Positions 25,201-56,986 of a stretch of 64,000 nt of DNA are shown in pieces; position 1 is the stretch's first letter; the number at the start of each line of letters is the position of its first letter. Position numbers and translations under genes: made by a program. Origin of the DNA: a candidate division WWE3 bacterium RAAC2_WWE3_1 (GTDB lineage: Bacteria > Patescibacteriota > WWE3 > UBA101185 > UBA10185). The stretch spans positions 529,680 to 593,679 of the forward strand of contig CP006914.1 of assembly GCA_000503835.1 (NCBI GenBank), read 5' to 3'. The notes below the pieces were generated by a model. The model worked only from the letters and a program-made list of their open reading frames with translations. It had not been told where the DNA came from and did no database searches.

Positions 25201-26504
25201 CCCTATCTACAGACACAGCCGGTTTACCGTTAAACTCAGCCAAATCCGCATACTGCGTTCCGGGAGATGCAACAACCTGCAACGCCCCTGTTGCCGAATA
25301 TAATTTCGATGAAAAACAGGGTTCATATATAAACGATGTGTCGGGAAACGCACATCAAGGTACTCTCGCAAACAGCCCCGCGTGGACGAACGGCAATATC
25401 GGAGGAGCCGTGGAATTTAACGGTACTAACAACTACGCCACGATTGCGACAGGCGAACTTGTCGCCCAGGATGCCATCACGGTCGAAGCCTGGATCTATC
25501 CCGGAAAAGTCACCGACGCATCTAATGCCTTCACCATTTTCGTTCAAAACGATAGTGGCGCCGGAAACGCTACTCACCTTTTCGCCATTGATAACACGAA
25601 CGGCAAGCTCCTGTACGACAACACCGGTCCGGCCGGCGGAGCTATAAACGGCAATACTGCCCTCACTCCAAACACCTGGAATCACGTGGTCTTTACCAGA
25701 AGCGGTACTTCCGTAAACTTCTATCTTAATGGTATGAACGACGGCTCCGGTACCGGTGAAAGCAGAGCAAGTTCGGCAGACGTAGATAACACTTTGATAG
25801 GAGCACGGTACTACTCGGCCGCCCCCCAGCATAAATTTATAGGAAAGATCTCACAGCTTACGGTGTTCGACTACGCCAGAACCGCATCTCAAATTGCCTG
25901 GGACCACGGCAAAGGCAGTCCGTCACTTTGGTGGAAACTTGACGACTGCCAGGGTCTTGTGGCGCAGGATTCGGGTGTAAATAATTTCGACGGCACTATA
26001 ACAATCGGCGCATCTCTTTCCAACACCTCGGAAGGTTCCTGCTCTTCAGGTCAAAGCAGTCAGGCCTGGAACAACGGGACATCGGGTATGATTAATTCGA
26101 GCCTTCACTTTGATGGTACTGACGACTATATTACCCGGGGAACAGGTCCCTCGACGTATTCAATGAGTCTTTGGGTAAAACCTTCTTCCACAACACAGTC
26201 AATAGTAGATCTGGACGGGGGCACACATACTCTAACTGTCTCCTCAGGAACAATATCAGCCGGCGGTTTCTCTTCTCCCACTATTTACGTGGACGGATAC
26301 CCGACAACGACACTATCAGATACAAACTGGCATCAAATAACCGTTGTAACAAGTACCCCCTTTAACACGGGCACCATCACCTTAGGTAAAATAAACACGG
26401 CTTACTACACAGGACAAATAGATGAATTTAAACTCTTCTCCTACCCTCTGACCGCCATACAGGTCAGGGACAACTTTGCAAAGGGTGTGGCAACCTTCGA
26501 CTAA
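16230..26504 (+). CDS. Giant (3424 aa) membrane-anchored surface protein with two DUF2341 domains, about 12 novel ~100-aa repeats, and seven LamG/Laminin_G_3 (concanavalin-A-like) domains
   Basis: A 10.3-kb uninterrupted ORF starting 85 bp after the first giant gene.
- A basic N-terminus is followed by a TM helix (LVPVSVGMLIVLLPVIWLSI).
- nt 16620-16920: DUF2341-like sequence (DWFDDNWHYRKKITITN...DARFTD..GQVLRYYID...FYVLLPTINAGSTVIYFYYAN).
- nt 22470-22740: a second DUF2341-like sequence (PITFDNSA..LTNFPVLVKL....DIRFTDSDG..LNYEIEKWD..GTSFVWVKVPNI.....IYMYFND).
- nt 21600-26460: seven jelly-roll units with FDG.DDYV...SMW..WHHVA.V.DG....LY.DG....G.IDEV.IY..AL motifs.
- nt 18200-21550: repeated A.LYN.T.G..VTGSE.ST...................Y.V..K.S....AKII units. 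Confidence 0.85.
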   Translation: MKEGLNIKEKMKRVRRKIVGFGKFSTPYRKHDVTSIFEERERSKDTGSSIKAFSSKKLQLLYIKIIAFFTARKQNWRNFYTQELPFSRILRFLKSRYPTYKKYLVPVSVGMLIVLLPVIWLSIKNPDKVRADWFDDNWHYRKKITITNNGTADADKKILFETDTSALISGSKMQNTCADARFTDVNGQVLRYYIDAATGACNTVSTDFYVLLPTINAGSTVIYFYYANTYVEAVAETSQFSQATFSPAGSSTGNESVGPGPAAYWKFDEAYDQKENTKIEQELEIMTVGEYSTSSYTASIPIDITYSAAQNLTDYQIPVTFSYQSGMNTDFSDIRFYNSAGTKLNYWIESKTDSTTASVWVKVPLISGSTTTTIYLRYGNSGFTSESSLANTFTSNSVQLLTSRCPSSSTACYFSDSHTEFDTVASSVQNLTSGFAVDGSGSVTAVNNSSNPYGSSDNYFSRYRFLFVADTSGTHGFLVNSDDASELNLRDAMDTDTTHTVPAYWYGGHGNAGTCATSGTTGTRSINSGESVWLDYRQTEVGSGQLAQLCISEPAGSYAVVNTTNFPGQLYARSVITTGSEPSVSVGAPQQGGYTFMPTNNSLGIVGYNPSLYSSVSSVNLEIVASTDNGTTWTKYRTTESGNNLSSSTYTVRVKAGVGSNTPQAALYDTTSGTSFLPLNFGTTSDTEVSIKNARLIIRQESGVGITQTETKTEMGSYEAGTAATYTQQTDKKIYNYDSTKYNPAPTNFFETTAKVTNDSVGVEQQIPITNTPPLTTRTTSYTPTDSSLGVGYWDADKYPGGTVYLEVDHYNYDYSDPYIAIYTVSGTYVTEFQVSPASQGYIRYRSPALTLTDDTAYTVRWKASNAAHPQTLYAARFIVVQTDTTKITGTETQVEIGANTTSTATSYTNLTDKKIWRYDSSKYSPAPTTYFEAVLSNDTAGQTSYVALYTDGAACSSQVTGSEISVTGTTWSWVRSNSISLSSGTDYTVCIKTSANTAKMTNAKIIMDQSDATNGVRDVELYQSQVNAIMTDADTTYTSSYKFTGFNPGIHASQITFEGGTFNYFYESTMKTSAGTGYARLYNSTAGTAITSGEITTSSTSYTRIRSGNITASMPSATGSFLIAQDLDTQAKNSATNTTSLANSWIIVQVSNLSNTSNTVYADLYNLTDGTSVTGSEVSTAAVQTITYLRSSPITLTTGKEYVVRTKTSSADSVPYYTYNAKIIMDQSDATNGVRDVELYQSQVNAIMTDADTTYTSSYKFTGFNPGIHASQITFEGGTFNYFYESTMKTSAGTGYARLYNSTAGTAITSGEITTSSTSYTRIRSGNITASMPSATGSFLIAQDLDTQAKNSATNTTSLANSWIIVQVSNLSNTSNTVYADLYNLTDGTSVTGSEVSTAAVQTITYLRSSPITLTTGKEYVVRTKTSSADSVPYYTYNAKIIMDQSDATNGVRDVEIVHAANAYKYTDSDSTYTQIYNFNLTPNYNMKGGNFVYFFESNLKTTGGTAYARLYNSSAGATITNSEITTNSTSLVRVRSAELSSYLPTAADSLDVQLRNSATNTTTTTGSSLIIQVTNLGDPNTYIALYSNATSCSSQVPGSEISTKPSDGTKRVVSQSISLSDGEYMVCTKASSGVTITLYNAKINHQQSNAQGITNLRTFRSLNTDLETQATATYTSKNGLNFYDPAQFTGTVTGSFDATVLATATTAYAQLYNVTTSGALTETEVSTTSTSYVRLQKSITTLPASESTLDVQIKNSSTNTTKTTASWLVLDIENILPAIVHDSTSNKLNGQLEGTTWESEQNCISGSCLEFDGVDDYVKVTDNPRLDFGASDSFTISMWFTLPYSTTNSRGLISKYESTGADGGYQIRVDANGKVVVEISDDNTTFPKDSVTSSVSYRDSKWHHVAAVKDGATSLKLYMDGVLEGTDSSIATAGALSNNDLLYMGDANDGTTGNWLGHIDEAKIYRYARTAQEIENELYGTNPGGSTSLGENAATKINNGLLAQWKLEETTADSCGTGVTDGCDNTNNGYDGYWNGNPTSGQGKIGNGLTMDGTGDALRVTPEGAKLPNTSLSTRIPITFDNSASAEDLTNFPVLVKLNSSRINYSKTQDAGQDIRFTDSDGTTLLNYEIEKWDETGTSFVWVKVPNIPAGATTDKIYMYFNDTSLSDGQNASGVWNSNYVVSQHMKETTGVTTYDSTSNANNGTKLAATEPNPTTSGQINGAQSFDGSNDYITLSSSVSGSIDQITVSAWVYANTQGEASDYRAVVSEAFTGDNNVEFELYLTGANHNLSAGFYSGSWTTVSDTVAFPLNQWVHVLATYDGHYIKVYKDSVLVKTSTDLNKPLPNGANGWRIGRRHDSGNAANMWDGLIDEVRISNTVRSGDWVEAIYKSEKDTLNTYGAEQPYIPNFNVSDQVSVTGWYYPTTLDNTTKYLTFGSGTTKSMYIKTDSVNAGKLLFSSNGTNEGTSSTTLSTNNWYQITLVGNSTETKLYINGELDSTVTNTTGISNLESFYIGNNDSLSTGGWIGKVDEVKLYNTALSASEIAAGYDTPKSPLAYYTFDQKNATGVFDISTNNNAGTWGGSTTNRYTLGKFGSAGIFDGTSDYVTTSDTPFDITGDFTLESWINLGTAGSAPYNIISKHGAAGSGGYSLFVDANGAVNCLTDNGTAEITSKTANSSVTSSSGWIHVSAVRNGTSCKIYINTEDRTSTAGTHTSLSANSSTLRLGSNVSGSGFFKGYMDEVKIYDYALAPKTLLIDYNAGHPVPGSPVGSAKGWWKMDEGYDNTAHNTGSSGSTNNGTITGAAWSQDGKFDRALDFDGTSDYVTVATGEIVDQNTVTIEAWIYPTSVNGAHDFTILAQNDNGAGYTTHNFGISGSSGKLLYDNELPASGVLNSNTSITANQWQYVAVVRNADSVTFYLNGVADGSGTGEARSSSAAIDNTLIGARYYSAAPQHQFAGKIDEVKIYNVALTASQVAQAYNRGKAMSFGALSTDTAGLPLNSAKSAYCVPGDATTCNAPVAEYNFDEKQGSYINDVSGNAHQGTLANSPAWTNGNIGGAVEFNGTNNYATIATGELVAQDAITVEAWIYPGKVTDASNAFTIFVQNDSGAGNATHLFAIDNTNGKLLYDNTGPAGGAINGNTALTPNTWNHVVFTRSGTSVNFYLNGMNDGSGTGESRASSADVDNTLIGARYYSAAPQHKFIGKISQLTVFDYARTASQIAWDHGKGSPSLWWKLDDCQGLVAQDSGVNNFDGTITIGASLSNTSEGSCSSGQSSQAWNNGTSGMINSSLHFDGTDDYITRGTGPSTYSMSLWVKPSSTTQSIVDLDGGTHTLTVSSGTISAGGFSSPTIYVDGYPTTTLSDTNWHQITVVTSTPFNTGTITLGKINTAYYTGQIDEFKLFSYPLTAIQVRDNFAKGVATFD
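19241..20600. repeat. Near-perfect 654-bp (218-aa) in-frame tandem duplication inside the second giant gene: two full copies plus about 52 bp of a third
   Basis: Unit 1 (19241-19894) and unit 2 (19895-20548) are identical apart from roughly one synonymous change (ggttatgcg versus ggctatgcg). The first ~52 bp of the unit recur at 20549-20600 before the sequence diverges. The identical spurious antisense ORFs at 19475-19699 and 20129-20353 confirm the period of 654. Confidence 0.9.
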
Positions 26505-27751: not shown

Positions 27752-27755
27752 TATT

Positions 27756-27821
27756 CATTTGAGTACAAAAGTATAATCATTTGAGTACAAAAGTATAATC
27801 ATTTGAGTACAAAAGTAGTAT
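27756..27821. repeat. 3 x 22-bp perfect or near-perfect tandem repeat (tcatttgagtacaaaagtataa) directly 3' of rplL
   Basis: The 22-bp unit occurs three times (third unit ends gtagta instead of gtataa). Each copy ends in the motif aaagta, as does the rplL 3' end. Confidence 0.85.
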
Positions 27822-40437: not shown

Positions 40438-40514
40438 TGGTCGGGGTGGGCGGACTCGAACCGCCGGCCTCACGGTCCCGAACCGTGCACTCTAGCCAAC
40501 TGAGCTACACCCCG
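40438..40514 (-). tRNA. tRNA-Pro (anticodon CGG)
   Basis: Reverse complement: CGGGGTG-TA-GCTC-AGTTGGCTA-GAGT-G-CACGG-TTCGGGA-CCGTG-AGGCC-GGCGG-TTCGAGT-CCGCC-CACCCCG-A-CCA. It forms a cloverleaf with a C1:G72 pair typical of bacterial tRNA-Pro, and CCA is encoded. Confidence 0.8.
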
Positions 40515-40621
40515 AAGAGCGAATACGACGGGGGCGTGCAAAAGGAAGCAACCTTGTATTCAAGGTGAGCAGGCCTTTACACCCCACGAAAAACCTCAAG
40601 GCAAAAAGCTACATCTTAAAA

Positions 40622-40642
40622 TGGTGCCCCCGGCGGGAATTG
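40622..40642. repeat. 21-nt direct repeat of the tRNA-Arg 3' end (3' strands of the T-arm and acceptor stem, plus CCA), 141 bp from the tRNA copy
   Basis: tggtgcccccggcgggaattg at 40622-40642 equals 40763-40783, the 3' end of tRNA-Arg. The flanking sequence differs. Confidence 0.7.
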
Positions 40643-40762
40643 GTCACCGGTACTCGCCTGCTGGCTCGTCCGTCGACCCCGGCTCGGCACCGTCGTGCCT
40701 GCGCCATTCAATCCCCTTACGGGCAGAAACCCGACCGCCACCTTCGGTGACGTTCGTGTTTC

Positions 40763-40837
40763 TGGTGCCCCCGGCGGGAATTGAACCTGCATCTTATTCT
40801 TAGGAGGAACACGTTCTATCCGTTGAACTACGGGAGC
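40763..40837 (-). tRNA. tRNA-Arg (anticodon CCT)
   Basis: Reverse complement: GCTCCCG-TA-GTTC-AACGGATA-GAAC-G-TGTTC-CTCCTAA-GAATA-AGAT-GCAGG-TTCAATT-CCCGC-CGGGGGC-A-CCA. The acceptor, D and anticodon stems pair well. The T-stem has one A:C mismatch and the variable loop is 4 nt, which is why confidence is only moderate. Confidence 0.6.
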
Positions 40838-40867
40838 AAAGCAATAAGATTTTAACACACAAACCCC

Positions 40868-42415
40868 CTACTTCGTGACAACAAACATTTCCGAAGGCAG
40901 TCGGTACTTTTCAATCAATTCTTTGTTAAGAACACCGTTTCTTACCAATATAAGCGCGAAATCGTCTACATAAACCGGCACCCATTCATGGTCGGCAAGT
41001 CTCGTGATAAGGAAGGGCTGCGCCCAGGGTGTGAAATCCCTTCTGTAAAAGAAAATAACGTTGAAATTGTGTCGGGCCATTACCTCTTTCCACTTTTCCT
41101 CGTTTTCCTGCATAGGAACGTAGGTTTCTGTGAAAAAATCCTCCGGGTAAGCTTCCGGTCTGTTGTCGACAAATACTTTTTCACGCGGGTATAAGCCATA
41201 AATCAGGTAACTTCCTATATCGTAGTTGTTAAAAACAGGTCCTTTTAGGCTGTTTCTGTTGAAAAATTCCAACGATTCCATTGAATCTTTTCCCAGGCCG
41301 ACGCCGAAACCGGGTTGAAAAGGCGAAAAATAAGTGCCCGGGATTAGGCTCAGCCCTATTACAACAAACAAGGCTCCGTAAATAAAAACTTTCTTTTTAA
41401 TTTCGCCCAAAACAAGTGTCATCACAGGAATTGCAGTGATAACAAAAAGCGGGATTGCTCTAAGATACTTTCCCCCGAGAACCAAAAATATCAGGGAAAT
41501 TACTATTCCGGGCAATTCGTCTTTCGCTTTCTTTTTGTAGAGCAGGTACGTTATACAACCAAGTAAAAATAATCCCGCAATCTCAAAGAAAAAATACTCG
41601 AACTTCGGATACCTGATTTGCATAAAGAATACTGACTGATTTTCGGATATCCTGTACCCGTAGTTTCTGAAGATGTTAAATGGAGTCAACAGACCTTCCA
41701 ATCCAAACGGATTAACCAAGCTTGCCAGAACAATCGAAAGTAGCAAGACAAGCACCTCCCACCTCTGCGTGCCAACTTTTTTGACTAATATAAAATAAAA
41801 AACGTATATCGCCGTAATGATAATTCCAAACACAAAAAAGATGTGGAAGTTTACCCAGAGTACCTGGAGGAGAAAGAGGAACGGGAGTAATAATTTTAGC
41901 TTAAACTGTCCAACCCCATATGATTCGAAAATATAAACGTACATAGCGAGTAAGAGGTAACTGAAGTTCTCCGGACGTACCTCATTGCGCGATGCAAAGA
42001 GAGGCGCGAGTAAAAGTAATGACAGCGCAAAGACACCAAAGAAGCATCTCTTTCTTACCGATAAATAAATAAAAAGTGCCGTTAAAGAGGCAAGAACTGC
42101 ATTAAGGAATGTGAGTCCCTCGAACCCGGATACTCTGTAAATTAGATAGAAAATGACCCCGACTCCCCAGTGATGAGTTACTACCGGGAAATCTGCATTT
42201 GTATACGAATAAAGGTTTGTCCTGAGAACGCTACCCTGCTCTACAAATAGCTTGCCGTTGACCAAATGTCTCCCCAGGTCGACGATCGGCAAATTTATCT
42301 TGGTAAGAAAAAAGAAACCGAAATACGTAAAAAGGAGGGTTTTGGGCAAAAGTCTAAGGAGCACGGGTAACATTTCCTTGAATACCAGGCCTGCTTTGTT
42401 GACAAAACGTGTCAT
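40868..42415 (-). CDS. Large polytopic membrane protein with a C-terminal soluble domain, possibly a GT-C-fold glycosyltransferase (PMT/ArnT/YfhO-like)
   Basis: It has about 12 predicted TM helices and a ~120-aa hydrophilic C-terminus. The start was placed at the Met whose ATG overlaps the stop of the upstream Cys-rich gene in an ATGA arrangement (42412-42415). The ORF track extends to 42466. No catalytic motif was recognised with certainty. Confidence 0.5.
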   Translation of the reverse strand: MTRFVNKAGLVFKEMLPVLLRLLPKTLLFTYFGFFFLTKINLPIVDLGRHLVNGKLFVEQGSVLRTNLYSYTNADFPVVTHHWGVGVIFYLIYRVSGFEGLTFLNAVLASLTALFIYLSVRKRCFFGVFALSLLLLAPLFASRNEVRPENFSYLLLAMYVYIFESYGVGQFKLKLLLPFLFLLQVLWVNFHIFFVFGIIITAIYVFYFILVKKVGTQRWEVLVLLLSIVLASLVNPFGLEGLLTPFNIFRNYGYRISENQSVFFMQIRYPKFEYFFFEIAGLFLLGCITYLLYKKKAKDELPGIVISLIFLVLGGKYLRAIPLFVITAIPVMTLVLGEIKKKVFIYGALFVVIGLSLIPGTYFSPFQPGFGVGLGKDSMESLEFFNRNSLKGPVFNNYDIGSYLIYGLYPREKVFVDNRPEAYPEDFFTETYVPMQENEEKWKEVMARHNFNVIFFYRRDFTPWAQPFLITRLADHEWVPVYVDDFALILVRNGVLNKELIEKYRLPSEMFVVTK

Positions 42416-43331: not shown

Positions 43332-43343
43332 CTGGTGGAGGGA
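43327..43343. repeat. Partial direct repeat of the tRNA-Ser 3' end and flank (ttttctggtggagggag), 139 bp from the tRNA copy
   Basis: It matches 43466-43482 (tttgttggcggagggag) at 14 of 17 positions and matches the 12 nt of the tRNA 3' end (tggYggagggag) with one transition. Confidence 0.6.
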
Positions 43344-43428
43344 GTTTTACTTCGTAAAGCAATTCTGCTCACTTCGTTCGCAGAAATGTGTGACTCGAAC
43401 CTGCTTCGCGGTACGACCAGACGCCCCT

Positions 43429-43470
43429 CAAACAAAAAATATCCGGCGGTAAACGCCGGCCACTTTTTGT
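43429..43470 (-). terminator. Hairpin plus T-tract terminator immediately 3' of tRNA-Ser
   Basis: The minus strand reads ..CCA-ac-aaaaagtgg-CCGGCG-tttac-CGCCGG-atattttttgtttg. Confidence 0.5.
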
Positions 43471-43560
43471 TGGCGGAGGGAGTGGGAGTCGAACCCACGA
43501 TGCCCTTGCGGGCATAGCAGTTTTCAAGACTGCCGCACTAGGCCACTATGCGATCCCTCC
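43471..43560 (-). tRNA. tRNA-Ser (anticodon TGA), class II with a long variable arm
   Basis: Reverse complement: GGAGGGA-TC-GCA-TAGTGGCCTAGT-GCG-GCAGT-CTTGAAA-ACTGC-TATGCCCGCAAGGGCATC-GTGGG-TTCGACT-CCCAC-TCCCTCC-G-CCA. Confidence 0.8.
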
Positions 43561-46400: not shown

Positions 46401-48200
46401 TTACATCTTTTCCACTACTTCGATACCCAAAAGACCTAGTGCTTGCTTCAATACGACCATCGTCGCGTGGGACAAAAAGAGACGGAATTTCCTGGCACTT
46501 TCGGAGGACGCGTCCAAAATCGGCAGTTCACCGTAAAAAGAGTTGAATTTCTGGCCAACCTCGAAAGCATAATTTGCAATCTGGTTAGGAGAATACTCAT
46601 TTGCGGACTTCGCTACAAACTCCGGAAAATGTACCAGAACCGATGCCAACGCCCTTTCTTTGAAGTGCATTGAAAATTCCTTAGGGATAGCTTCATATTT
46701 GAACTTCCCGCCGTCTATCTCGAACCCAGCTTTTTCAAGCACCGATCCGGCTCTTGCATACGTGTATAACAAATACGGACCGGTGTTTCCTTCAAATTTG
46801 GTTACCTGTTCGTAGTTAAATACAACATCCTGCTTAGTATCAACTTTGAGCATTCCGTACTTGAAGGCCGCTAAAGCTACCCGTTCTGCCGTTTCCCGGA
46901 CTATTTTAGGCGATTTTATACTGTTGCGGATTTCCTCCTCTTCGAGAGACACCAGATCTTCCAACACGTCATCTGCGTTGACTACCAGACCCGTGCGCGA
47001 AGACATTTTTCCCCGAGGAAGAGAAACCATGCCGTAAGCGATGTGAACCAATCTATCCGACCAGTCAAAACCCAAAAGCTCAATTATTTTGAACAACTGC
47101 CTGAAATAGTCAGACTGTCTTACATCGACCACGTACAATCTTTTGTCGAACTTATATTTGTCGTAACTTTCTTTTGCCAGTTGAAGTTCCTTGGTGGAGT
47201 AGACCGACGTGCCGTCGCTTCTTAATAAAACTTTATCAGAAAGTCCGTATTTTTCGAGCTTCGCAATAATAGCTCCGGTCCCGTCTTTCACGGCCAATCC
47301 CTTTTCCAAAGCCAGCAATGCAATCTCTTTTCCGACATTAATCTTTTCGCTTTCATACTCCCAAACGTCGAACTCTACCTTCTGGTCTGAATAGGTCTTT
47401 TTCCAGCCCTCATATACCCAGGAATTCATCTTTTCCCAAACCGCCCTTACTTCTTTATCTCCGGCTTCCCATCGTCTGAGCAGTTCCTGAGCTTCATTCT
47501 CAATTTCGGGGTTTTTCTCGTGCTCCACCTCATACATTGTATAAAAGTCGCCCACGTAGTGATCGCTTTTTTTATCCGGAAGAGCTTCGTTACCATGTTT
47601 CATGTACATCAGCATGCTTTTACAGATGTGTATGCCGATGTCTCCCACGTAATTCGTCTTCACAACATCGTAGCCGCAATAAGCCAAAATCCCGGAAAGG
47701 GAAGAACCGATAAAGTTATTTCTGGCGTGTCCTATGTGCTGGGGTTTGTTGGTATTAGGCTGGGAGTATTCGACAATTACCCTTTTTCCCTTACCGAAAT
47801 CGGCTGACCCATAGGACTTGTCTACGAGGTTAATATCCATAGTGTTGTGGAAAAGGAATTTGTCACTTAGCGTAAAGTTTATAAAGCCCGGAGCATGGGG
47901 TTCGATTTTTTCGAAAATAGGGTACAACATACCCTCGAATTCTATCTTCGGGTTCTCGGATGAAATTTCGTGCGCAACCTCAGTTGCTATCTCAAAAGGA
48001 ATTCTATCCAGCTTTTTTGCTAAGCCGAATGAAATGTTAGTGGAGTAGTCGCCGAAGCTTTCATTTTCCGGCGGGTCCGCGACTATGCTCAAACCGTCTA
48101 ACTCATAGAGTTTATAAACGGCCTTAGAAATTAGGTCTTCTGCCGTTCTCTTAACTTGGGATTTTCTAATTTCCATAGACAAAAGCATCATATCATTCAA
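46401..48200 (-). CDS. argS: Arginine--tRNA ligase
   Basis: The class I signature PNTNKPQHIGHARNNFIGSSL (the HIGH motif) and the C-terminal KMSSRTG variant of KMSKS are present. The 599-aa length and the anticodon-binding DALR-type C-terminus also fit. Confidence 0.9.
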   Translation of the reverse strand: MNDMMLLSMEIRKSQVKRTAEDLISKAVYKLYELDGLSIVADPPENESFGDYSTNISFGLAKKLDRIPFEIATEVAHEISSENPKIEFEGMLYPIFEKIEPHAPGFINFTLSDKFLFHNTMDINLVDKSYGSADFGKGKRVIVEYSQPNTNKPQHIGHARNNFIGSSLSGILAYCGYDVVKTNYVGDIGIHICKSMLMYMKHGNEALPDKKSDHYVGDFYTMYEVEHEKNPEIENEAQELLRRWEAGDKEVRAVWEKMNSWVYEGWKKTYSDQKVEFDVWEYESEKINVGKEIALLALEKGLAVKDGTGAIIAKLEKYGLSDKVLLRSDGTSVYSTKELQLAKESYDKYKFDKRLYVVDVRQSDYFRQLFKIIELLGFDWSDRLVHIAYGMVSLPRGKMSSRTGLVVNADDVLEDLVSLEEEEIRNSIKSPKIVRETAERVALAAFKYGMLKVDTKQDVVFNYEQVTKFEGNTGPYLLYTYARAGSVLEKAGFEIDGGKFKYEAIPKEFSMHFKERALASVLVHFPEFVAKSANEYSPNQIANYAFEVGQKFNSFYGELPILDASSESARKFRLFLSHATMVVLKQALGLLGIEVVEKM

Positions 48201-49027
48201 CGTGATCTTATAACAACATTCCCTGCCTTATCGGTGCGTATTACACCGCACCCGGCCTTTTCAAGTTCCTCAACGACCGATGGGGAAGGATGCCCGAAAG
48301 TGTTGTCTTTACCCACGGAGATCACGCAAATCCGGGGTTTGAGCTCAGCCACCAGCTCCCGGCTATACCCATTTACAGCGCCGTGGTGGGCAATTTTCAA
48401 CACGTCCAGCCTCCCCGAAATTAGCCTTTTCAGCTTCCTGAGATCTAACCTCTCCTGCGCCTCTGCTTCGAGGTCGCCCGGGAACAGGGCATCAAAATCC
48501 CTATATTTTAGAAGTAAAACGACTGAGGCGTTGTTAAGGTTTTTGGGCATTTCATTAATATTCCCGAAAGGTACGAACAGTTTTATAAATACACCGTTTA
48601 TGACGAATTGTTCCCCGTCAAAAGTTTTTTTAACTTTATTTTTATGATTATTTTTTACGTTTTCGGGCACGGCTCGTCCGTCAAGAACAACGTCGTTATA
48701 TCTAAGTATGTCAAATTTACACCTTTCGAGGATTCGTTTGAAACCCACAAAATGGTCGGCGTGGGTGTGGGTCAAAATTACCAGCGGCAGTCTGCAAACC
48801 AGACCCGTCCTTTCCAGAATGTATTTATCCGCCGTATAATCAGCCCCGCCGTCAATTAATACCAGCGGCCTTCCGTTCAATTCAATGTAGATACCATCCC
48901 CCTGCCCCACATCCACAACATGTATCGCCAAACCGGGTTCGTTTATTGAATGCCTACCCGCCACCAGTTGAAAAACCAAGATATAGACAACAACAAAAGC
49001 TAATTGAAAAGGAACGGGACCTTTCAT
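48197..49027 (-). CDS. ComEC C-terminal-type metallo-beta-lactamase-fold domain protein (DNA-uptake nuclease domain), encoded separately
   Basis: HVVDVGQGDGIYIEL, LTHTHADHFVGF and LKIAHHGAVNGYS...FGHP match ComEC/Rec2 Lactamase_B domain motifs. Its ATG overlaps the stop of the upstream competence-channel ORF in an ATGA arrangement. Confidence 0.7.
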   Translation of the reverse strand: MKGPVPFQLAFVVVYILVFQLVAGRHSINEPGLAIHVVDVGQGDGIYIELNGRPLVLIDGGADYTADKYILERTGLVCRLPLVILTHTHADHFVGFKRILERCKFDILRYNDVVLDGRAVPENVKNNHKNKVKKTFDGEQFVINGVFIKLFVPFGNINEMPKNLNNASVVLLLKYRDFDALFPGDLEAEAQERLDLRKLKRLISGRLDVLKIAHHGAVNGYSRELVAELKPRICVISVGKDNTFGHPSPSVVEELEKAGCGVIRTDKAGNVVIRSR

Positions 49028-50043
49028 TTATGTTTTTCCTTTGCCCTGATAATAAAAATGGTCAACGCTAAAAATACGGCGTAATAAAACACAAGCATTG
49101 GCAAAGACATCTTCCACGCCACGCTGGCGTTATTAGACCCCGAGAAAAAATTTACGGTGTTGATAAAAAAATCGCAAAAAGGAAAAAGGAGCATCCATAT
49201 AAATTTTGACGGGAGCAGTAACGCCGGAATGCCGAGCACCGTGGTTATAGGAACCGTCCACAAAACGAGGGCGTTTACCACCAAACTTATAAGACTTACC
49301 TGCCCAAACATTCCCGATATTAAAGGCCAAACCATTATCTGGGCGGCAAAACTTGCCGAAAAATCCCCCAATATAGACCATTTGTGTTTAAGTAACTTTA
49401 AAAGAAAACTTTCGACGGGATCAGCGAAAACAATTAACCCGAACGTGGCGAGAAAACTCAGGTACGTACTCGCGCTGAAAAAATTGCCCGGATTGATAAG
49501 CAGCACGCCAAAATAAGAGACAACCAGTAAACGCAATGAATTCAACAGGCGGCCGGAAAACTTTCCGACCAACATAAAAGAAGACATCACCCAGGCCCTT
49601 AATACCGGCGGTTCAAAACCCGTAAAGGCCGCGTAACCGAAAGTGGTAATTATAGTGAGTATTAGGTTCTTAACTTTGTACGGACTGCCGAAAATCTTCA
49701 AAGCATAACCGGCGATCAGACTCATGTTAAACCCCGAGACCACGACCACATGGATTGTTCCCGTCCGCTTTAACGCATCCTTGAAACGCGGAGATTTCGA
49801 AAGGTCGTCGACACCGATCGTCATACCCAGCACAAGCTCACTATGCGGGCTTGGGAGAAACTTTCTCGCCCTTTCCGATAAATGTTGCTTAACAGGCTCG
49901 AAAAACTCAAACGGACCCTTTTCAGGGCGCGGGGTGCAAGAAAAAATACTGCCCTGAGACTTGCAAAAATATAATACGCGTAGAGCCGTAACTAACATAA
50001 GAAGTAAAAATCCGATGTTCCGTTTTAGTAATTTCATCCTCAC
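49024..50043 (-). CDS. ComEC/Rec2 competence membrane-channel domain protein
   Basis: A polytopic membrane protein carrying LVLGMTIGVDDLSKSPRFKDALKRTGTIHVVVVSGFNMSLIAGY, which corresponds to the ComEC Competence domain region. It is followed, translationally coupled, by the MBL-domain ORF. Confidence 0.7.
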   Translation of the reverse strand: MRMKLLKRNIGFLLLMLVTALRVLYFCKSQGSIFSCTPRPEKGPFEFFEPVKQHLSERARKFLPSPHSELVLGMTIGVDDLSKSPRFKDALKRTGTIHVVVVSGFNMSLIAGYALKIFGSPYKVKNLILTIITTFGYAAFTGFEPPVLRAWVMSSFMLVGKFSGRLLNSLRLLVVSYFGVLLINPGNFFSASTYLSFLATFGLIVFADPVESFLLKLLKHKWSILGDFSASFAAQIMVWPLISGMFGQVSLISLVVNALVLWTVPITTVLGIPALLLPSKFIWMLLFPFCDFFINTVNFFSGSNNASVAWKMSLPMLVFYYAVFLALTIFIIRAKEKHK

Positions 50044-50064
50044 CCTTATCCGCCACGGTAAAAA

Positions 50065-50703
50065 TTAGAACGTAATTAAATCTTTTATTTTTTCGTATAC
50101 CGAGTTGGTAATCTGGGATTTTTCCTTGAACTCCTCTACTCCCGAGTAAGGTCTGTTGGCGACTATTCTTCCTGCATAAGCGGCGCCTATGCCGGGAAGG
50201 GCATCGAGCTCATCAAAAGTGGCGGTATTGACATTTACCTTTCCGGCGGACGTGGAAGTTGTACCCGCAACCTCCGGGGAACTCCCCGAGCTTTCAGCAA
50301 CGGGATTAGACTGTAATGACGGAAATATTTCCTGAGAACAGTTACCCCGGCTTACGCTGTATCCTAAAGCCTCGAACGGAATAAATACCTTCTGTTCATC
50401 CTTCAGGATCTGGGATAGGTTGATGTTTTTACTGACCCAGTAATAGTCGTAGTCGGATGTAAAATCGCCGGCAATTTTGATGGCGTCTATCATCCTGCCG
50501 CCTTCTTTAATATCATACACACCCGGGTTGGACACCGCGCCTGTGATTTCCACTGCGATATCGGCGGCATCGACGCAGATATTTTCTACGCCGTTGTCCG
50601 GAGGTTTGTCGGAATAGAAGACCGGATAAATCTGCGATACAACATACCCGGTTATAAAGGCTAATCCTACGGCTAAAATAATCGAAACCCTGTTTGAAGA
50701 CAC
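50065..50703 (-). CDS. comEA: Competence protein ComEA (SLBB domain plus tandem helix-hairpin-helix DNA-binding domain)
   Basis: An N-terminal TM is followed by VNVNTATFDELDALPGIGAAYAGRIVANRPYSGVEEF, which matches the ComEA HhH motif (NINTAS..EL..LPGIG...A..I...R). Confidence 0.75.
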   Translation of the reverse strand: MSSNRVSIILAVGLAFITGYVVSQIYPVFYSDKPPDNGVENICVDAADIAVEITGAVSNPGVYDIKEGGRMIDAIKIAGDFTSDYDYYWVSKNINLSQILKDEQKVFIPFEALGYSVSRGNCSQEIFPSLQSNPVAESSGSSPEVAGTTSTSAGKVNVNTATFDELDALPGIGAAYAGRIVANRPYSGVEEFKEKSQITNSVYEKIKDLITF

Positions 50704-50907
50704 GCCTTATCGTAAGTTCATATGCTTAAAAAATAAATGGAGATGGGTCTATCTTCGGTAGAAATCCGATTATTTAATTACCGCGGAATAAACGCAAGGC
50801 GATGCCTTGAATACAATATGTAATGACTTAACACAACTTATTACCGCATAATTAACGCGTGGGTAGGTTCGCAACGGCAAGCCGGGAAAAAACGGAAATA
50901 AAAAAAC

Positions 50908-51222
50908 TCAGTCTTCCAGAGCTTTTAGCAGGATTTCTTTGAAAACCTTACTTCTGTTTAAATCCTTTAGAAGAGCCACAAACCTCGTCTCATTTATTCT
51001 GTAGTAAACTTCTCTGCCCTTTTTGTCATTCTTCAAAAAACCAAGGGAGGCTAAAACCCTGAGATGATGAGATGCCAGATTTTCTTCTACATTAAGCCTA
51101 TCCGCCACCTCCGAAACATTTCTCTGACCCGTACTTAAATACTGGATAATCTTTAGGCGGTTCTTGTCTGCCAAGGCCTTAGAAACTTTTTCTAACATCA
51201 TAATGCCTGGAATATACAACAT
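50908..51222 (-). CDS. ArsR/SmtB-family transcriptional regulator
   Basis: LADKNRLKIIQYLSTGQRNVSEVADRLNVEENLASHHLRVLASLGFL is a winged-HTH ArsR signature. Confidence 0.65.
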   Translation of the reverse strand: MLYIPGIMMLEKVSKALADKNRLKIIQYLSTGQRNVSEVADRLNVEENLASHHLRVLASLGFLKNDKKGREVYYRINETRFVALLKDLNRSKVFKEILLKALED

Positions 51223-51235
51223 GATTTAAAATAAT

Positions 51236-52756
51236 TCAAGGTTTGTCATTCTTTACCCTATATTGGACGGCTTCCGCCAGGTGGGCCGCTGAGATTTCCG
51301 AAGCATTTTCCAGATCCGCTATGGTCCTGGATACCGCCAGTATTCTGTGAACTGCCCGTGTGGATAATCCGTATCTTGAAACCGTCATTTCTAACAGGGA
51401 CGAAGCATCCCCCTCCAGGTTACATATTCTATTTATACTGTTGTAAGGTATCCCGGAATTGTAACTGATTCCCAAATGCGCGAGCCTGTTCCTTTGAATA
51501 GAAACCGCCTTTCCGATCTGCTCTCTGACAGGACATGTCGCGTGGCATTCTTCTCCGTTTTTTAGACGGGACGCTTCCAAGGAAGAACCGGATACATAAG
51601 TTAAAATATCGAATCTTTCCAATAAGGATGCATTCATCCTCATATTGTAGGTGTTTATATCTTTTCCGTTACATTTGCACTGTCTATCCTCTGCCCCGAG
51701 CAGACCGCACATACAATTGTTTGCCGCTCCTATCAATAGGAAATCAGCGGGATAAGAAACAGGAACCCCCTCATTGTGGAACTCTATCTTCTTAAGATCA
51801 ATGACCGTTTTTAGAGAGTTCAAGACTTTGGGTCTAAAAAGGTGCATTTCGTCCAGGAAAAGTATTCCCTTGTGTCCCAAAGTTGCCTCTCCGGGCATTC
51901 TGGGACTTCCTATTAAACTGCCCTCACTGACGGAAATGTGGGGTCTTCTAAATGGCGTTGTTACAACATTTTCTACGGGCAGTCCGCATAAAACTCCGGC
52001 TTTTAATATTTCCACTACATCTTTTGTGGTACCCGCAGGAAACATACGAGCACTCTTCTCTGCCAATAAGGACTTTCCCGTACCCGAGGGACCGAGCATT
52101 AAAATATTGTGGTGTCCGGAAATACTTATCGTCAAAGCACGTTTCGCACGAGCGTTTCCGAGTACGTTACAGAAACATCCCGCCCCGCCCCTGATCTCCG
52201 GAACATAACTATGTGACAAAGACTGACTTTCAATCAAAGTCATTCCGTTGCCTTTAATAAAAAACTTCGCCGCGTCACCCAAAGAGGACAATTTATATAC
52301 ATTTAGGTCATTTTTCTTTTCGTTAAAATAATAGGACTTGTCCGGTATAAACAACCGACCTATTCTCCCCGACGCCCACCCGTCGTCCATGAATATAGTT
52401 TTAACCGAAGGAACGAGATAACCTGCCGAGTCGACACCGCCGTAGAAAAGATCCGATGTACCGGAAACCGACCCCGAATGAACAAGTAAAATACTCATTG
52501 ATATAGGAAACTCTATGTCTGCAAGGTCAGAAATTAAACCCGCCGGATACACATTCACGTTCATTTTCTTGTTTGGAAATTCCAGTCCGGAGTTGCTAAA
52601 GGCAGTTCTGATCTTTCTTATACTTTTCACACACTCCCCACCCTTCACACCCGTTACCTCGACCCTCGGTATGCCCCGAGACGAAATAGTAACCTCAATG
52701 TCGAGATCAACAACCGTAGAACCCTTAATAACGAACGACCTAACTTTATAGTACAT
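51236..52756 (-). CDS. comM: YifB/ComM-family Mg-chelatase-like AAA+ ATPase (competence helicase ComM)
   Basis: It has an N-terminal Lon-protease-like domain, a Walker A (ILMLGPSGTGKSLLAEK), a Walker B (ILFLDEMHLFRPKVLNSL), and LLERFDIL plus a C-terminal Mg_chelatase_C region. Confidence 0.8.
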   Translation of the reverse strand: MYYKVRSFVIKGSTVVDLDIEVTISSRGIPRVEVTGVKGGECVKSIRKIRTAFSNSGLEFPNKKMNVNVYPAGLISDLADIEFPISMSILLVHSGSVSGTSDLFYGGVDSAGYLVPSVKTIFMDDGWASGRIGRLFIPDKSYYFNEKKNDLNVYKLSSLGDAAKFFIKGNGMTLIESQSLSHSYVPEIRGGAGCFCNVLGNARAKRALTISISGHHNILMLGPSGTGKSLLAEKSARMFPAGTTKDVVEILKAGVLCGLPVENVVTTPFRRPHISVSEGSLIGSPRMPGEATLGHKGILFLDEMHLFRPKVLNSLKTVIDLKKIEFHNEGVPVSYPADFLLIGAANNCMCGLLGAEDRQCKCNGKDINTYNMRMNASLLERFDILTYVSGSSLEASRLKNGEECHATCPVREQIGKAVSIQRNRLAHLGISYNSGIPYNSINRICNLEGDASSLLEMTVSRYGLSTRAVHRILAVSRTIADLENASEISAAHLAEAVQYRVKNDKP

Positions 52757-53636
52757 AATAGACGCCTCCCTTTTCGAAAATCAGATTTTTCAGCATCATT
52801 TCAACGATAATTTTGTTCAGAACGGGCCCGGGAATTCCTGTTTCACTGCTCAGATCATCGAAGTCCGGACTCTTTTCCTTTAGTACGGAAAGAATACGTG
52901 ATTCCCTGTCATCGTCCGCGGCTGTCGTGCCGTTTCGGCGTGTTTCCTCCTTATTAATGCCCATCTCATTCATAAGCTGTCCGGGCGAAAGATAAATCTC
53001 CGCCCCCTCGGCGGCCAGCTTGTTTGTCCCCGCCGATCTCTCTGTGTAAATATCCCCGGGGACGCTGAAAATTTTCCTACCGTACTTAGAGGCAAAATAG
53101 GCAGTAATCATGGAACCGCTGTTTAAGGAGGCTTCGACAACCAAAAGTACTTTGGATAAGGCCGCTATTATTCTGTTCCTCTTTGGATAGGTCCATTTTC
53201 GAGGTTTAAACCCGTCCTCAAATTCCGAAACTACTGCCCCTCCGCCCCTTACTATCCTTTTATACAGTTCTTTATTTGTTGAGGGGTGGACAATATCACA
53301 ACCGCAGGGCATTACAGCAACAGTAATGCAACCCGCGCCTAAAGCAAATTCGTGGGCGTAGCTATCGGTACCTGCGGTGAAGCCGGAAACGACAATAAGT
53401 TCGGTGTCCTTTAAAAAATAAAAAAGTTCGCGCAAAACCCTAATACCGTAAGGGGAGATCCTCCTGCTTCCCACGATACCAAGACCTTTCTCACTAAAAC
53501 CCGTCGGCAGTGTTCCCCGCACGTATAAATTTTCCGGAAGTCCTTTAACAGGCCCGCCGCACGAAGGAAAGACCACTATGTCAGACGGAGCCGCGTTTAT
53601 CATGTATACAAATATGATACCGGCGCCATAAAACAC
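52746..53636 (-). CDS. dprA: DNA-processing protein DprA (Smf)
   Basis: GIVGSRRISPYGIRVL is the Rossmann-like DprA core. FTAGTDSYAHEFAL and the LVVEASLNSGSMITA motif are also present. Confidence 0.8.
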   Translation of the reverse strand: MFYGAGIIFVYMINAAPSDIVVFPSCGGPVKGLPENLYVRGTLPTGFSEKGLGIVGSRRISPYGIRVLRELFYFLKDTELIVVSGFTAGTDSYAHEFALGAGCITVAVMPCGCDIVHPSTNKELYKRIVRGGGAVVSEFEDGFKPRKWTYPKRNRIIAALSKVLLVVEASLNSGSMITAYFASKYGRKIFSVPGDIYTERSAGTNKLAAEGAEIYLSPGQLMNEMGINKEETRRNGTTAADDDRESRILSVLKEKSPDFDDLSSETGIPGPVLNKIIVEMMLKNLIFEKGGVYYVL

Positions 53637-56690: not shown

Positions 56691-56721
56691 GACCCCGGAA
56701 TTACAAAGAGATTGAAAAGAA

Positions 56722-56760
56722 GAAACCCCCGCTCGGCGGGGGTTTCTTTATGTGTATTTT
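56722..56760. terminator. Bidirectional rho-independent terminator
   Basis: gAAACCCCCGCtcgGCGGGGGTTTCtttatgtgtatttt. The stem is GC-rich, with an A-run upstream and a T-run downstream. Confidence 0.65.
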
Positions 56761-56780
56761 CTGGTGGACCGTAGCGGAGT
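56756..56780. repeat. 25-nt direct repeat of the tRNA-Ala 3' end plus 5 nt of flank, 150 bp from the tRNA copy
   Basis: ttttctggtggaccgtagcggagt at 56756-56779 is identical to 56906-56929. After position 56779 the sequence diverges (aagag versus cgaac). Confidence 0.7.
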
Positions 56781-56871
56781 AAGAGCTTGCTCACTCACTC
56801 CGTTCGTTGCGCTTCCTCATACATTGCTACACAATGACGAACCACTTCGTAGTTCTTCGTTTTAGATTCAA

Positions 56872-56899
56872 CGAAAAACTATCGGTAGCCTTGGCTACC
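56872..56899 (-). terminator. Hairpin plus T-tract immediately 3' of tRNA-Ala
   Basis: The minus strand reads ..CCA-gaaaaagtagc-GGTAGCC-aa-GGCTACC-gatagtttttcg. Confidence 0.45.
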
Positions 56900-56910
56900 G
56901 CTACTTTTTC

Positions 56911-56986
56911 TGGTGGACCGTAGCGGAGTCGAACCGCTGACCTCTTCCATGCCATGGAAGCGCTCTACCAACTAAGCTAACGGCCC
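56911..56986 (-). tRNA. tRNA-Ala (anticodon GGC)
   Basis: Reverse complement: GGGCCGT-TA-GCTT-AGTTGGTA-GAGC-G-CTTCC-ATGGCAT-GGAAG-AGGTC-AGCGG-TTCGACT-CCGCT-ACGGTCC-A-CCA. The G3:U70 alanine identity pair is present. Confidence 0.85.

Follow-up and report, generated by a model that had tools for sequence, protein, structure and literature searches.

Protein-free cassettes within duplicated tRNA 3' ends of candidate division WWE3 bacteria, probably a new kind of tiny tRNA-targeting unit

Genomic islands, prophages and cis-mobilizable elements (CIMEs) that occupy tRNA genes create a repeat of the tRNA 3' end from the T loop, where such integration sites reportedly begin, and an intact tRNA is restored by the element; filled and empty alleles and accreting arrays are typical of them. 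Integron cassettes, which may be tiny or empty, form arrays at one docking site through a recombinase encoded outside the cassette, and their attC sites are set by the fold of one strand, with conserved mismatches, a bulge and stems of variable sequence. The IS200/IS605 insertion sequences (IS), palindrome-associated transposable elements (PATEs) and the repetitive extragenic palindromic (REP) sequences and bacterial interspersed mosaic elements (BIMEs) with their REP-associated tyrosine transposases (RAYTs) are hairpin-based and strand-specific, with a guide beside the hairpin that pairs with the flank of the cleavage site, with insertion beside a short conserved target and, for REP sequences, with homogenisation within genomes. 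Miniature inverted-repeat transposable elements (MITEs) are small, non-coding, multi-copy and presumably mobilised in trans. To our knowledge, the mobile DNA of the candidate phyla radiation (CPR, Patescibacteria) is poorly catalogued. In this work we analysed a stretch of 64,000 nucleotides (nt) from candidate division WWE3 bacterium RAAC2_WWE3_1 (contig CP006914.1, positions 529,680 to 593,679; hereafter the window), in which three of four tRNA genes are followed by a partial copy of their own 3' end. Comparison of the sequences places the enclosed inserts in what appears to be a superfamily of 100-145-nt protein-free cassettes that, in these ultra-small bacteria, lie within a partial duplicate of the tRNA 3' end. 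They are probably a new kind of tiny tRNA-targeting cassette, for which no RNA family or mobile element matched in the libraries searched, and there is an appreciable chance that their mechanism is new as well.

The four tRNA genes of the window, called by ARAGORN and Rfam, all lie on the minus strand (Table 1; coordinates are those of the window unless a compared locus or contig, designated by an L-number, is named, and W denotes the genome of the window). An earlier note had described repeats behind tRNA-Arg(CCT), tRNA-Ser(TGA) and tRNA-Ala(GGC), each reaching from the 3' strand of the T arm to about 5 nt beyond the CCA. Each distal copy does sit downstream of its own tRNA. The Arg pair was borne out as an exact 21-nt direct repeat of tRNA nt 56-76 with a spacing of 141 nt, and the Ala pair is exact over 24 nt (tRNA nt 58-76 and a further 5 nt past the CCA) with a spacing of 149 nt, its distal copy lying one base away from where it had been placed. 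The Ser repeat is genuine as a duplicate of the acceptor 3' strand and CCA, to which it is confined (11 of 12 nt, with G73 changed to A; 12 of 12 in the orthologues of L001, L004 and L005), and the T-arm strand is not part of it. Since a repeat search of the entire 64 kb found only nine short-range direct-repeat families, the Arg and Ala repeats are not due to chance.

The Arg insert belongs to a large family. The hairpin B pattern, GGGGTCGA-N9-CAGCAG-N10-GTGACC, which is common to this insert and to inserts of L001, L002, L004 and L005, has one match in the window (none expected by chance) and at least 118 in a metagenome collection; about 75 of the matches listed are genuine, and nearly all of these run straight into the 3' half of a T loop, which continues with the 3' strands of T stem and acceptor and with CCA. 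With a covariance model derived from 51 copies, 106 matches were obtained in 84 metagenome loci; within the window, the model matched only the Arg unit (84 bits), a canonical member whose hairpin B recurs without any difference in a Phe unit (L067). When the Arg unit is included, 71 of 107 matches lie directly downstream of a tRNA gene on the same strand, and the hosts represent 16 amino-acid types. The further copies beside tRNAs that the earlier note had envisaged are thus many, and tandem arrays occur in five loci (L015, L036, L058, L082 and L122). Judged from contig features only, copies outside WWE3, the one assignment that is established, probably belong to other CPR bacteria.

Read in the sense of the tRNA, a unit consists of the tRNA with its CCA, an optional hairpin H0 (A run, stem and T run; a 20-30-nt AT-rich spacer takes its place in short forms), a segment X of 7-10 nt, G-A-A-(A/U)-G, hairpin A, GG, hairpin B and the tail, which is the distal copy of the tRNA 3' end. 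The inserts measure 100-145 nt and are non-coding; the earlier note had judged them far too small for an integrase gene. X together with GAA is the reverse complement of tRNA nt 54-65 (for example, AGGACTTGAA in a Leu unit, or GGAAGGAATCGAA for a tail reading GATTCCTTCC), and therefore X pairs with the tail in a helix, P1, that closes a three-way junction with hairpins A and B. In the Arg unit, the first 7-8 nt of the tail make up the 3' strand of P1, and X plus GAA is a near reverse complement of tRNA nt 54-63 with one G.T wobble; in many other copies the complement is exact. In the alignment of 51 sequences, 89% of the cells for this pairing were paired, compared with 70% after shuffling, double changes numbered 288 compared with 94, the covariation score was 0.50 compared with 0.16 for shuffled sequences and 0.06-0.11 for slid registers, and 18 of the 28 pairs had compensatory changes. 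About 15 unpaired bases are invariant. The invariant or nearly invariant unpaired and non-canonical positions are the junction GAA, the G-N-A/G-A internal loop of hairpin A (the G in 50 of 51 copies, the remainder in all 51), the GG and, in hairpin B, a G.T wobble and an A.G mismatch in the invariant lower stem, a bulged A and an AGCA loop, with variable stems that covary. These variable stems contain 424 Watson-Crick pairs and 3 G-T pairs, and P1 has about 6% G.U pairs. The wobble-poor hairpin B with its fixed G.T, A.G and bulged A may fit a folded DNA strand that is read by a protein better than a typical RNA, and the covarying junction may best be read as a structure-defined recombination site that is used single-stranded, by analogy with attC or with HUH-type hairpin sites. 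Of 36 long units, 17 have a terminator-like hairpin that separates the tRNA from the junction, and such a hairpin follows the tail in only 6 of 51 units; the junction is therefore mostly shielded from transcription of the tRNA.

The extent of the repeat follows the tRNA gene. In all of the more than 40 other copies it starts at C56 of the T loop, in agreement with the comparison that the earlier note had drawn with tRNA integration sites, and in most copies it ends exactly where the gene ends, measuring 21 nt behind genes with an encoded CCA and 19 nt (to C74) behind CCA-less genes. A target-site duplication of fixed length was ruled out by this, as the length (19, 21 or up to 32 nt) tracks the end of the tRNA. 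A copy of the mature tRNA was likewise ruled out: five of six tails behind CCA-less genes (L026, L128, L116, L013 and L060; L114 is the sole exception) also lack CCA, and the tails therefore copy the gene. The tRNA genes of L013, L116, L128 and L060 end in N73-C-A(A), neither CCA nor nothing, and their tails copy that end. A tRNA-like acceptor stem in cis, a minihelix or a tag of the transfer-messenger RNA (tmRNA) type was rejected by a pairing test, in which the longest run of tail nt 66-73 complementary to the upstream 45 nt averaged 4.74, compared with 4.61 for shuffled tails. A "T-loop intron" of a split tRNA was also considered, and no locus was found to rely on the distal tail alone for a functional 3' end; in L094 the duplicate is degenerate and an intact gene lies beside it.

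The Ser and Ala inserts of the window are not further copies of the Arg insert, and the suggestion that all three are one element did not hold. The Arg unit is a canonical A-B unit; the Ser insert is composed of a terminator-like H0, a degenerate pseudo-tRNA-Ser and a 43-nt module ahead of the acceptor strand, which in L005 sits within the tail of a canonical unit; and the Ala insert is a reduced unit in which H0 is followed by about 60 nt of unrelated sequence and then a hairpin-A-like motif. The motif proposed to be shared by the three is real for Ser (CTGCGAACGAAGTGAGCAG) and Ala (GCGCAACGAACGGAGTGAGTGAGC), both variants of hairpin A that are identical at 16 of 16 nt between the copies of L005 and L036, and it fails for Arg, whose segment GTCGACGGACGAGCCAGCAG is the 5' half of hairpin B. 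The small hairpin of the Ser module changes from TTTAC/GTAAA to TTTGC/GCAAA in L004 and L005. Hairpin B is missing from both. The Ser and Ala inserts are reduced relatives of the Arg family in which the hairpin-A-like motif alone is kept, and the feature that unites the family is not a terminator-like hairpin and a motif, as had been supposed, but a three-way junction that covaries and in which the repeat itself supplies one strand of the closing helix.

Table 1. Positions of the tRNA genes, the parts of the inserts and other features in the window.
Feature	Coordinates	Strand	Remarks
tRNA-Pro(CGG)	40438-40514	-	site empty in W; orthologous site filled in L001 (also L020, L038) by a canonical A-B unit
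tRNA-Arg(CCT)	40763-40837	-	direct-repeat copy 1 at 40763-40783, the final 21 nt of the gene (nt 56-76)
Arg H0	40726-40762	-	imperfect hairpin GAAAC...GTTTC directly after CCA
Arg X (GGGGATT)	40710-40716	-	complementary to tail nt 57-63; supplies the 5' strand of P1
Arg junction GAATG	40705-40709	-	G, A and A in 51, 49 and 50 of 51 copies
Arg hairpin A (GGCGCAGGCACGACGGTGCCGAGCC)	40681-40705	-	outer pairs covary; 100% identical in L002
Arg hairpin B (GGGGTCGA N9 CAGCAG N10 GTGACC)	40642-40680	-	39-nt hairpin
Arg tail	40622-40642	-	direct-repeat copy 2, tRNA-Arg nt 56-76
Open reading frame across Arg unit and tRNA	40616-40858	-	80 aa, GTG start
tRNA-Ser(TGA)	43471-43560	-	last 12 nt (43471-43482) repeated
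Ser H0	43434-43468	-	terminator-like hairpin and T run; stem CCGGCG/CGCCGG, 43443-43459
Degenerate pseudo-tRNA-Ser segment	43388-43429	-	GAGGGG (like acceptor 5' strand), variable-arm remains, T-arm-like GCAGGTTCGAGTCACAC
Ser module M	43344-43383	-	hairpin-A-like motif CTGCGAACGAAGTGAGCAG (43365-43383) and small hairpin GCTTTACGAAGTAAAAC (43344-43360)
Ser tail CTCCCTCCACCA	43333-43344	-	nt 65-76 with G73 changed to A
tRNA-Ala(GGC)	56911-56986	-	direct-repeat copy 1 at 56906-56929 (nt 58-76 and GAAAA)
Ala H0	56874-56904	-	terminator-like hairpin (stem 56883-56900) and T run
Ala hairpin-A-like motif GCGCAACGAACGGAGTGAGTGAGC	56789-56812	-	part (GGAGTGAG) pairs with the tail in the minimum-free-energy fold
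Ala tail	56757-56780	-	direct-repeat copy 2
Ala native terminator	56719-56749		bidirectional; follows the tail
Giant open reading frames	2720-16144, 16230-26504	+	4474 and 3424 aa, internal repeats
Tandem 22-nt copies (three)	27752-27817		TA(T/A)TCATTTGAGTACAAAAGTA; downstream of the L10/L12 region
Natural-transformation genes	48197-53636		ComEC split into two open reading frames: metallo-beta-lactamase domain 48197-49027, Competence domain 49024-50043; ComEA 50065-50703; ComM/YifB 51236-52756; DprA 52746-53636

Relatives were compared through five syntenic loci of WWE3 metagenome-assembled genomes (MAGs), L001-L005, found by means of the arginyl-tRNA synthetase gene (69-91% protein identity). 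The empty sites that the earlier note had asked about are present for all four tRNA loci. The Arg locus is filled in W and L002 and empty in L001; at the Pro locus, L001 has a unit and both W and L002 are empty; the Ala locus is filled in L002 and L004 by one type and in W by another and is empty in L001 and L003; and the Ser locus is filled in W, L001, L004 and L005 and empty in L003. At all four, the alleles differ by exactly the insert and one copy of the repeat, as those of an integrative element do, and H0 is missing from the empty alleles, so that the H0 of the Arg unit, which is missing from the empty L001 allele, belongs to the insertion. In the WWE3 loci compared, approximately half of all tRNA genes carry a unit. 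Between the orthologous Arg units of W and L002, GAATG and hairpin A (29 of 29 nt), the conserved part of hairpin B and the tail (21 of 21 nt) are identical, whereas H0, the stems of B, the adjacent spacer and the flanks are only about 55-60% identical. The tail is therefore under constraint, as would be expected if excision re-uses it, and the units are not decaying scars, contrary to another possibility raised in the earlier note. Modules H0, A and B are shuffled among copies: the Arg and Ala units of L002 have the same B together with a different A and a different H0, H0 is all that L057 (Ser) has in common with L073 (Gln), and in the chimeras L040 and L117 X matches the upstream tRNA while the tail derives from another tRNA.

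A tentative reading of these results, which we favour without considering it probable, is that the inserts are non-autonomous cassettes, each of which would arrive at the T loop with a substitute 3' end for the tRNA and would undergo recombination in trans by way of a folded single strand. The joint would lie in the universally conserved T loop, at G53-T54-T55-C56/N57, and the inserted DNA would comprise tRNA nt 56/57-76, usually H0, then X-GAA, hairpin A, GG and hairpin B. Because the cassette would bring a replacement end, the tRNA would stay intact and terminated, with its original 3' end displaced as the tail. X-GAA would pair with this tail, and the three-way junction that it thereby closes with A and B would lie precisely at the joint; folded in one DNA strand, the junction would be the recombination site for an enzyme encoded elsewhere in the genome, for which a tyrosine recombinase, acting as integron integrases do on attC, or an HUH-type enzyme are candidates. 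Excision would hand the tail back as the tRNA 3' end, and the entire tail would be kept perfect because excision would re-use it. Repeated entry could produce the tandem arrays, and exchange between copies the module mosaic. The natural-transformation genes of the window are relevant here, since incoming DNA is single-stranded. A non-autonomous, tRNA-targeting element mobilised in trans, as the earlier note had suggested, thus remains the best reading in view of the copies, the empty sites and the start in the T loop, and the arrays, the insulating terminator and the perfectly kept tail fit it too, although no integrase was found in the open reading frames of the window that were scanned or next to 79 loci and the shuffled modules are not what a simple att-flanked element predicts.

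Several observations weigh against this reading. X and both tRNA-derived segments are specific to the tRNA, whereas A and B are common across tRNA types, so that a discrete element would need either an adapted lineage for each tRNA or some unspecified rewriting of X and the tail; simple transposition does not explain tRNA-specific X segments and tails together with independent exchange of modules. The exchange of H0, A and B independently of one another looks, from the sequences, like gene conversion among resident copies and not like movement of whole units. The gains are derived from parsimony alone (a unit at the Pro site of L001, with W and L002 empty there), and precise loss between the repeats would yield identical alleles. 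In addition, the repeat is of variable extent on its right side, at 0 to +11 nt (+4 to +11 in some copies), and a minority of copies close P1 with sequence that is not from a tRNA or sit upstream of the tRNA inside a fragment of its 5' part. Lacking a terminator, the short units (15 of 51) are necessarily co-transcribed with the tRNA, and the tandem sheared G.A pairs, the conserved junction purines and the AGCA loop are classic features of functional RNAs. Finally, the window open reading frames (ORFs) that were scanned yielded neither a recombinase, nor an HUH enzyme, nor a reverse transcriptase, no protein family other than housekeeping genes recurs within 5 kb of 79 loci, and the enzyme acting in trans is purely hypothetical.

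Integrase, transposase and reverse transcriptase domains were all absent from a Pfam scan of the 30 window ORFs of at least 150 aa, which left out the two giant ORFs and a few overlapping ORFs, and no cognate integrase was found, in cis or in a related autonomous element, in these ORFs or around the 79 loci. Long intervals between a tRNA and a unit were considered as places for an autonomous partner and proved to be ordinary cargo islands with tails of their own (L073, with HNH and DUF4145 genes, and L036), which leave tRNA tails starting in the T arm. The long interval of L093, considered as an autonomous relative, is instead an IS of the IS256/Mutator family (about 955-2130 of the reverse complement) with a 286-aa transposase (PF00872), its own inverted repeats ACCGTAACAAAACGGTCACC and a target duplication of about 10 bp, and its insertion point is precisely the border of tRNA-Arg with the H0 of the mini unit there. 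No copy was detected in 2.9 million viral contigs or in phage or plasmid collections, and thus nothing points to attP forms borne by phages or plasmids. At the gathering threshold, Rfam 15 returned only the tRNAs and an L10 leader in the window, and permissive scans of the Arg unit and 12 other loci placed no family on the module. Hammerhead, k-turn, box C/D, signal recognition particle (SRP) and group II domain 5/6 motifs were compared by eye, and the conserved positions do not fit. The literature searched, whose coverage did not extend to subscription-only papers, contains no description of these units, nor one of CPR mobile DNA at tRNA genes.

When the units are set beside the described systems, they resemble tRNA islands and CIMEs in all the features named at the outset, including direct repeats that cover part of the target tRNA gene as att cores do, and true islands are found at the same tRNAs and on the same contigs. 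Unlike islands and CIMEs, the inserts have only 100-145 bp, far below any described, carry no integrase in cis, share one conserved core over 16 tRNA types, have an att-proximal covarying junction that uses the repeat as a strand, and contain a structured module of about 70 nt between X (the analogue of a "C arm") and the T-loop half. They share with integron cassettes small size, arrays at one docking site, a recombinase that would lie outside the cassette, and a candidate site set by the fold of one strand with conserved mismatches, a bulge and variable stems. However, the 51-copy consensus lacks the R''/R' boxes (RYYYAAC...GTTRRRY) and with them the R/L-box consensus GTTRRRY, no IntI or other integrase gene lies near the 79 loci, docking is at the tRNA T loop and not at attI, the junction has two hairpins conserved in sequence, and recombination of a single strand is here only inferred. 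With the IS200/IS605 group the units share the hairpins, the strand specificity, the guide-like segment beside a hairpin and insertion beside a short conserved target, here the T-loop GTTC, and hairpin B appears to be homogenised within genomes as REP sequences are. In contrast to that group, no Y1/HUH gene was seen in the window ORFs scanned, the left (H0) and right (A and B) hairpins are unrelated, H0 and B being dissimilar where a PATE would have similar subterminal hairpins at both ends, the target duplicate is 19-32 nt long, and the guide-like X has 7-12 nt compared with 4. A MITE is similarly small, non-coding and multi-copy, whereas here the inverted arms (X and tail) change from copy to copy with the host tRNA and the interior is conserved, a MITE reversed, and the length of the duplication is not fixed. 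Lastly, non-coding RNAs of Rfam and tRNA-like tags (the tRNA-like structures of plant viruses, tmRNA and the Mauriceville transcripts) also have covarying multi-helix folds with conserved junction purines and, in the tags, a 3' end that reproduces T-arm and acceptor sequence with CCA; unlike them, the units have no Rfam match, no partner for the acceptor stem and, often, a terminator before the junction.

The main alternative, possible if somewhat unlikely, is that the units are instead functional structured RNAs of tRNA loci, in which the junction bears a single-stranded tRNA-like 3' tag and is made as a trailer of the tRNA transcript, or as a leader in the upstream variant. Such an RNA might, for example, bind or decoy an enzyme that recognises the T arm or the CCA end, or guide an activity to tRNA nt 54-65 through X-GAA; presence and absence of units would then reflect precise deletion between the repeats, and module similarity would reflect gene conversion or co-evolution with a host factor. 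The invariant unpaired nucleotides, the tandem G.A pairs, the bulged A and a covariation that is kept from AT-rich to GC-rich lineages are consistent with this, as are the unchanged A, B core and full tail of the Arg units of W and L002 beside flanks that diverge by about 40%, the necessary co-transcription of the short units, a frequency of G.U pairs in P1 like that of ordinary RNAs, and the lack of a mobility gene in the window ORFs scanned and around the 79 loci; a unit on about half of the tRNA genes in WWE3 loci would also be a heavy parasite load for small genomes. Against it, about half of the long units have a terminator-like hairpin and T run before the junction, with no room for a promoter, the units are dispensable, as close relatives lack them at each locus, and the acceptor part of the tail has no partner in cis and hence forms no tRNA-like minihelix. 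Furthermore, the B stems contain hardly any wobble pairs, hairpin B is missing from the Ser and Ala units of the window, and no Rfam family matches.

The cassette reading has a more specific form, which we consider unlikely: a gene-free system of CPR bacteria that docks at the T loop, with a three-way junction of about 95 nt read as a folded single strand (DNA or RNA) and X-GAA as a programmable guide of 10-12 nt. X-GAA would then target tRNA nt 54-65 and direct insertion and excision, always regenerating a working tRNA. Quite improbable, in our estimation, is a mobile element mediated by RNA, in which X-GAA guides the junction RNA to tRNA nt 54-65, where it would be joined to the 3' fragment through catalysis by a ribozyme, or through a reverse transcriptase that initiates on the tRNA-like CCA end and switches template, and the product would be copied into DNA at the tRNA gene. 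X plus GAA is indeed an exact antisense of 10-12 nt to the T loop and T-stem 3' strand of the host tRNA, the tail stops at the tRNA 3' end, repeated template jumps would give tandem arrays, and the two insertion points (T loop 55/56 and D loop near G18/G19) are neighbours in three dimensions at the elbow of the tRNA; variants of the Neurospora Mauriceville retroplasmid that captured tRNA sequences offer a precedent. However, CCA-less genes have tails without CCA in the five loci named above (L114 being the exception), no reverse transcriptase was found in the window ORFs scanned or around the 79 loci, there is no likeness to Rfam ribozyme families, terminators lie ahead of the junction, and the guide must still be pre-adapted to each tRNA. 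That the units are inert leftovers, either interior-less scars of integrase islands or local duplications with chance convergence of terminators, is very improbable: ordinary islands with tRNA tails do exist at the same tRNAs (L036 and L073), as do degenerate tails and decayed units, but approximately 100 copies of a 39-nt hairpin with 20 fixed bases (chance expectation 0 in the window), the compensatory changes in 18 of 28 pairs, a hairpin A and tail perfectly conserved beside diverged flanks, and an identical architecture behind 16 tRNA types contradict the local duplication or generic-terminator convergence that the earlier note had kept in reserve, and on the covariation and conservation of these sequences inert scars appear to be excluded.

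Other observations concern variants of the family. An "upstream" A-B variant was found in four loci (L095, 4218-4310; L111, 108-202, minus strand; L027, 5334-5420, minus strand; L084, 49-138), where it lies 30-50 nt 5' of the tRNA inside a partial copy of the tRNA's 5' part. The order in L095 is nt 1-17, a hairpin TTGAAAAGC..GCTTTTCAA, A, B and nt 21-32, and the break falls near G18/G19 of the D loop, a position in contact with the T-loop site at the elbow of the folded tRNA. Downstream of tRNA-His in L060, tRNA-Ser in L123, tRNA-Lys in L129 and tRNA-Glu in L034, X, GAAAG, a structured interior and a tRNA tail are present with interiors unrelated to hairpins A and B; because these inserts share the frame, the superfamily is broader than the covariance model. 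In L082 (883-1004) and L109 (11026-11182), insertions of 60-100 nt occupy the apex of hairpin B, and the lower stem (GGGGTCGC ... GTGACC) is retained.

Variation near the window units was also noted in other assemblies. Five MAGs (L133-L137) are 100% identical to the window over 5.2 kb except for one gap of 22-60 nt each, different in each MAG, in or just upstream of tRNA-Arg (window about 40764-40911); in L134 nt ~50-75 of tRNA-Arg are missing and the 5' part of the tRNA is joined to H0, junction and tail. These gaps may represent real hypervariability or local assembly error. GCA_003485585.1 (L132/L139) is 99.95% identical to the window up to the CCA of tRNA-Ala, with both differences in the T loop and T stem, and the downstream sequence is diverged but syntenic and lacks the mini unit, which may be due to strain mosaicism with a break point in the tRNA or to chimeric assembly at a conserved tRNA. 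The remaining genes of the window are of housekeeping, glycan and competence types, together with two genes for giant proteins, which we take to resemble the very large proteins reported in CPR genomes (Table 1).

Under either reading, the units cause annotation error through partial tRNA hits and spurious ORFs. The 80-aa ORF across the Arg unit and its tRNA is an example, being spurious because the tRNA and the covarying structure cover the region, and it could mislead annotation. The repeats also make the units likely break points for recombination and for mis-assembly of MAGs at tRNA loci. If the units are functional RNAs, they would represent a widespread, uncatalogued RNA class that, in the WWE3 loci compared, accompanies approximately every second tRNA gene. 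If they are mobile, the cassettes would be among the smallest site-specific elements known to us and would illustrate how a target that is both essential and universally conserved can be used by an element without being harmed, and their guide-like segment suggests a re-programmable principle of target recognition. Should the guide-bearing system be true, it would constitute a new class of site-specific mobile element with a guide, or an integron-like platform on tRNA genes, with a catalyst that is encoded by the host or made of RNA.

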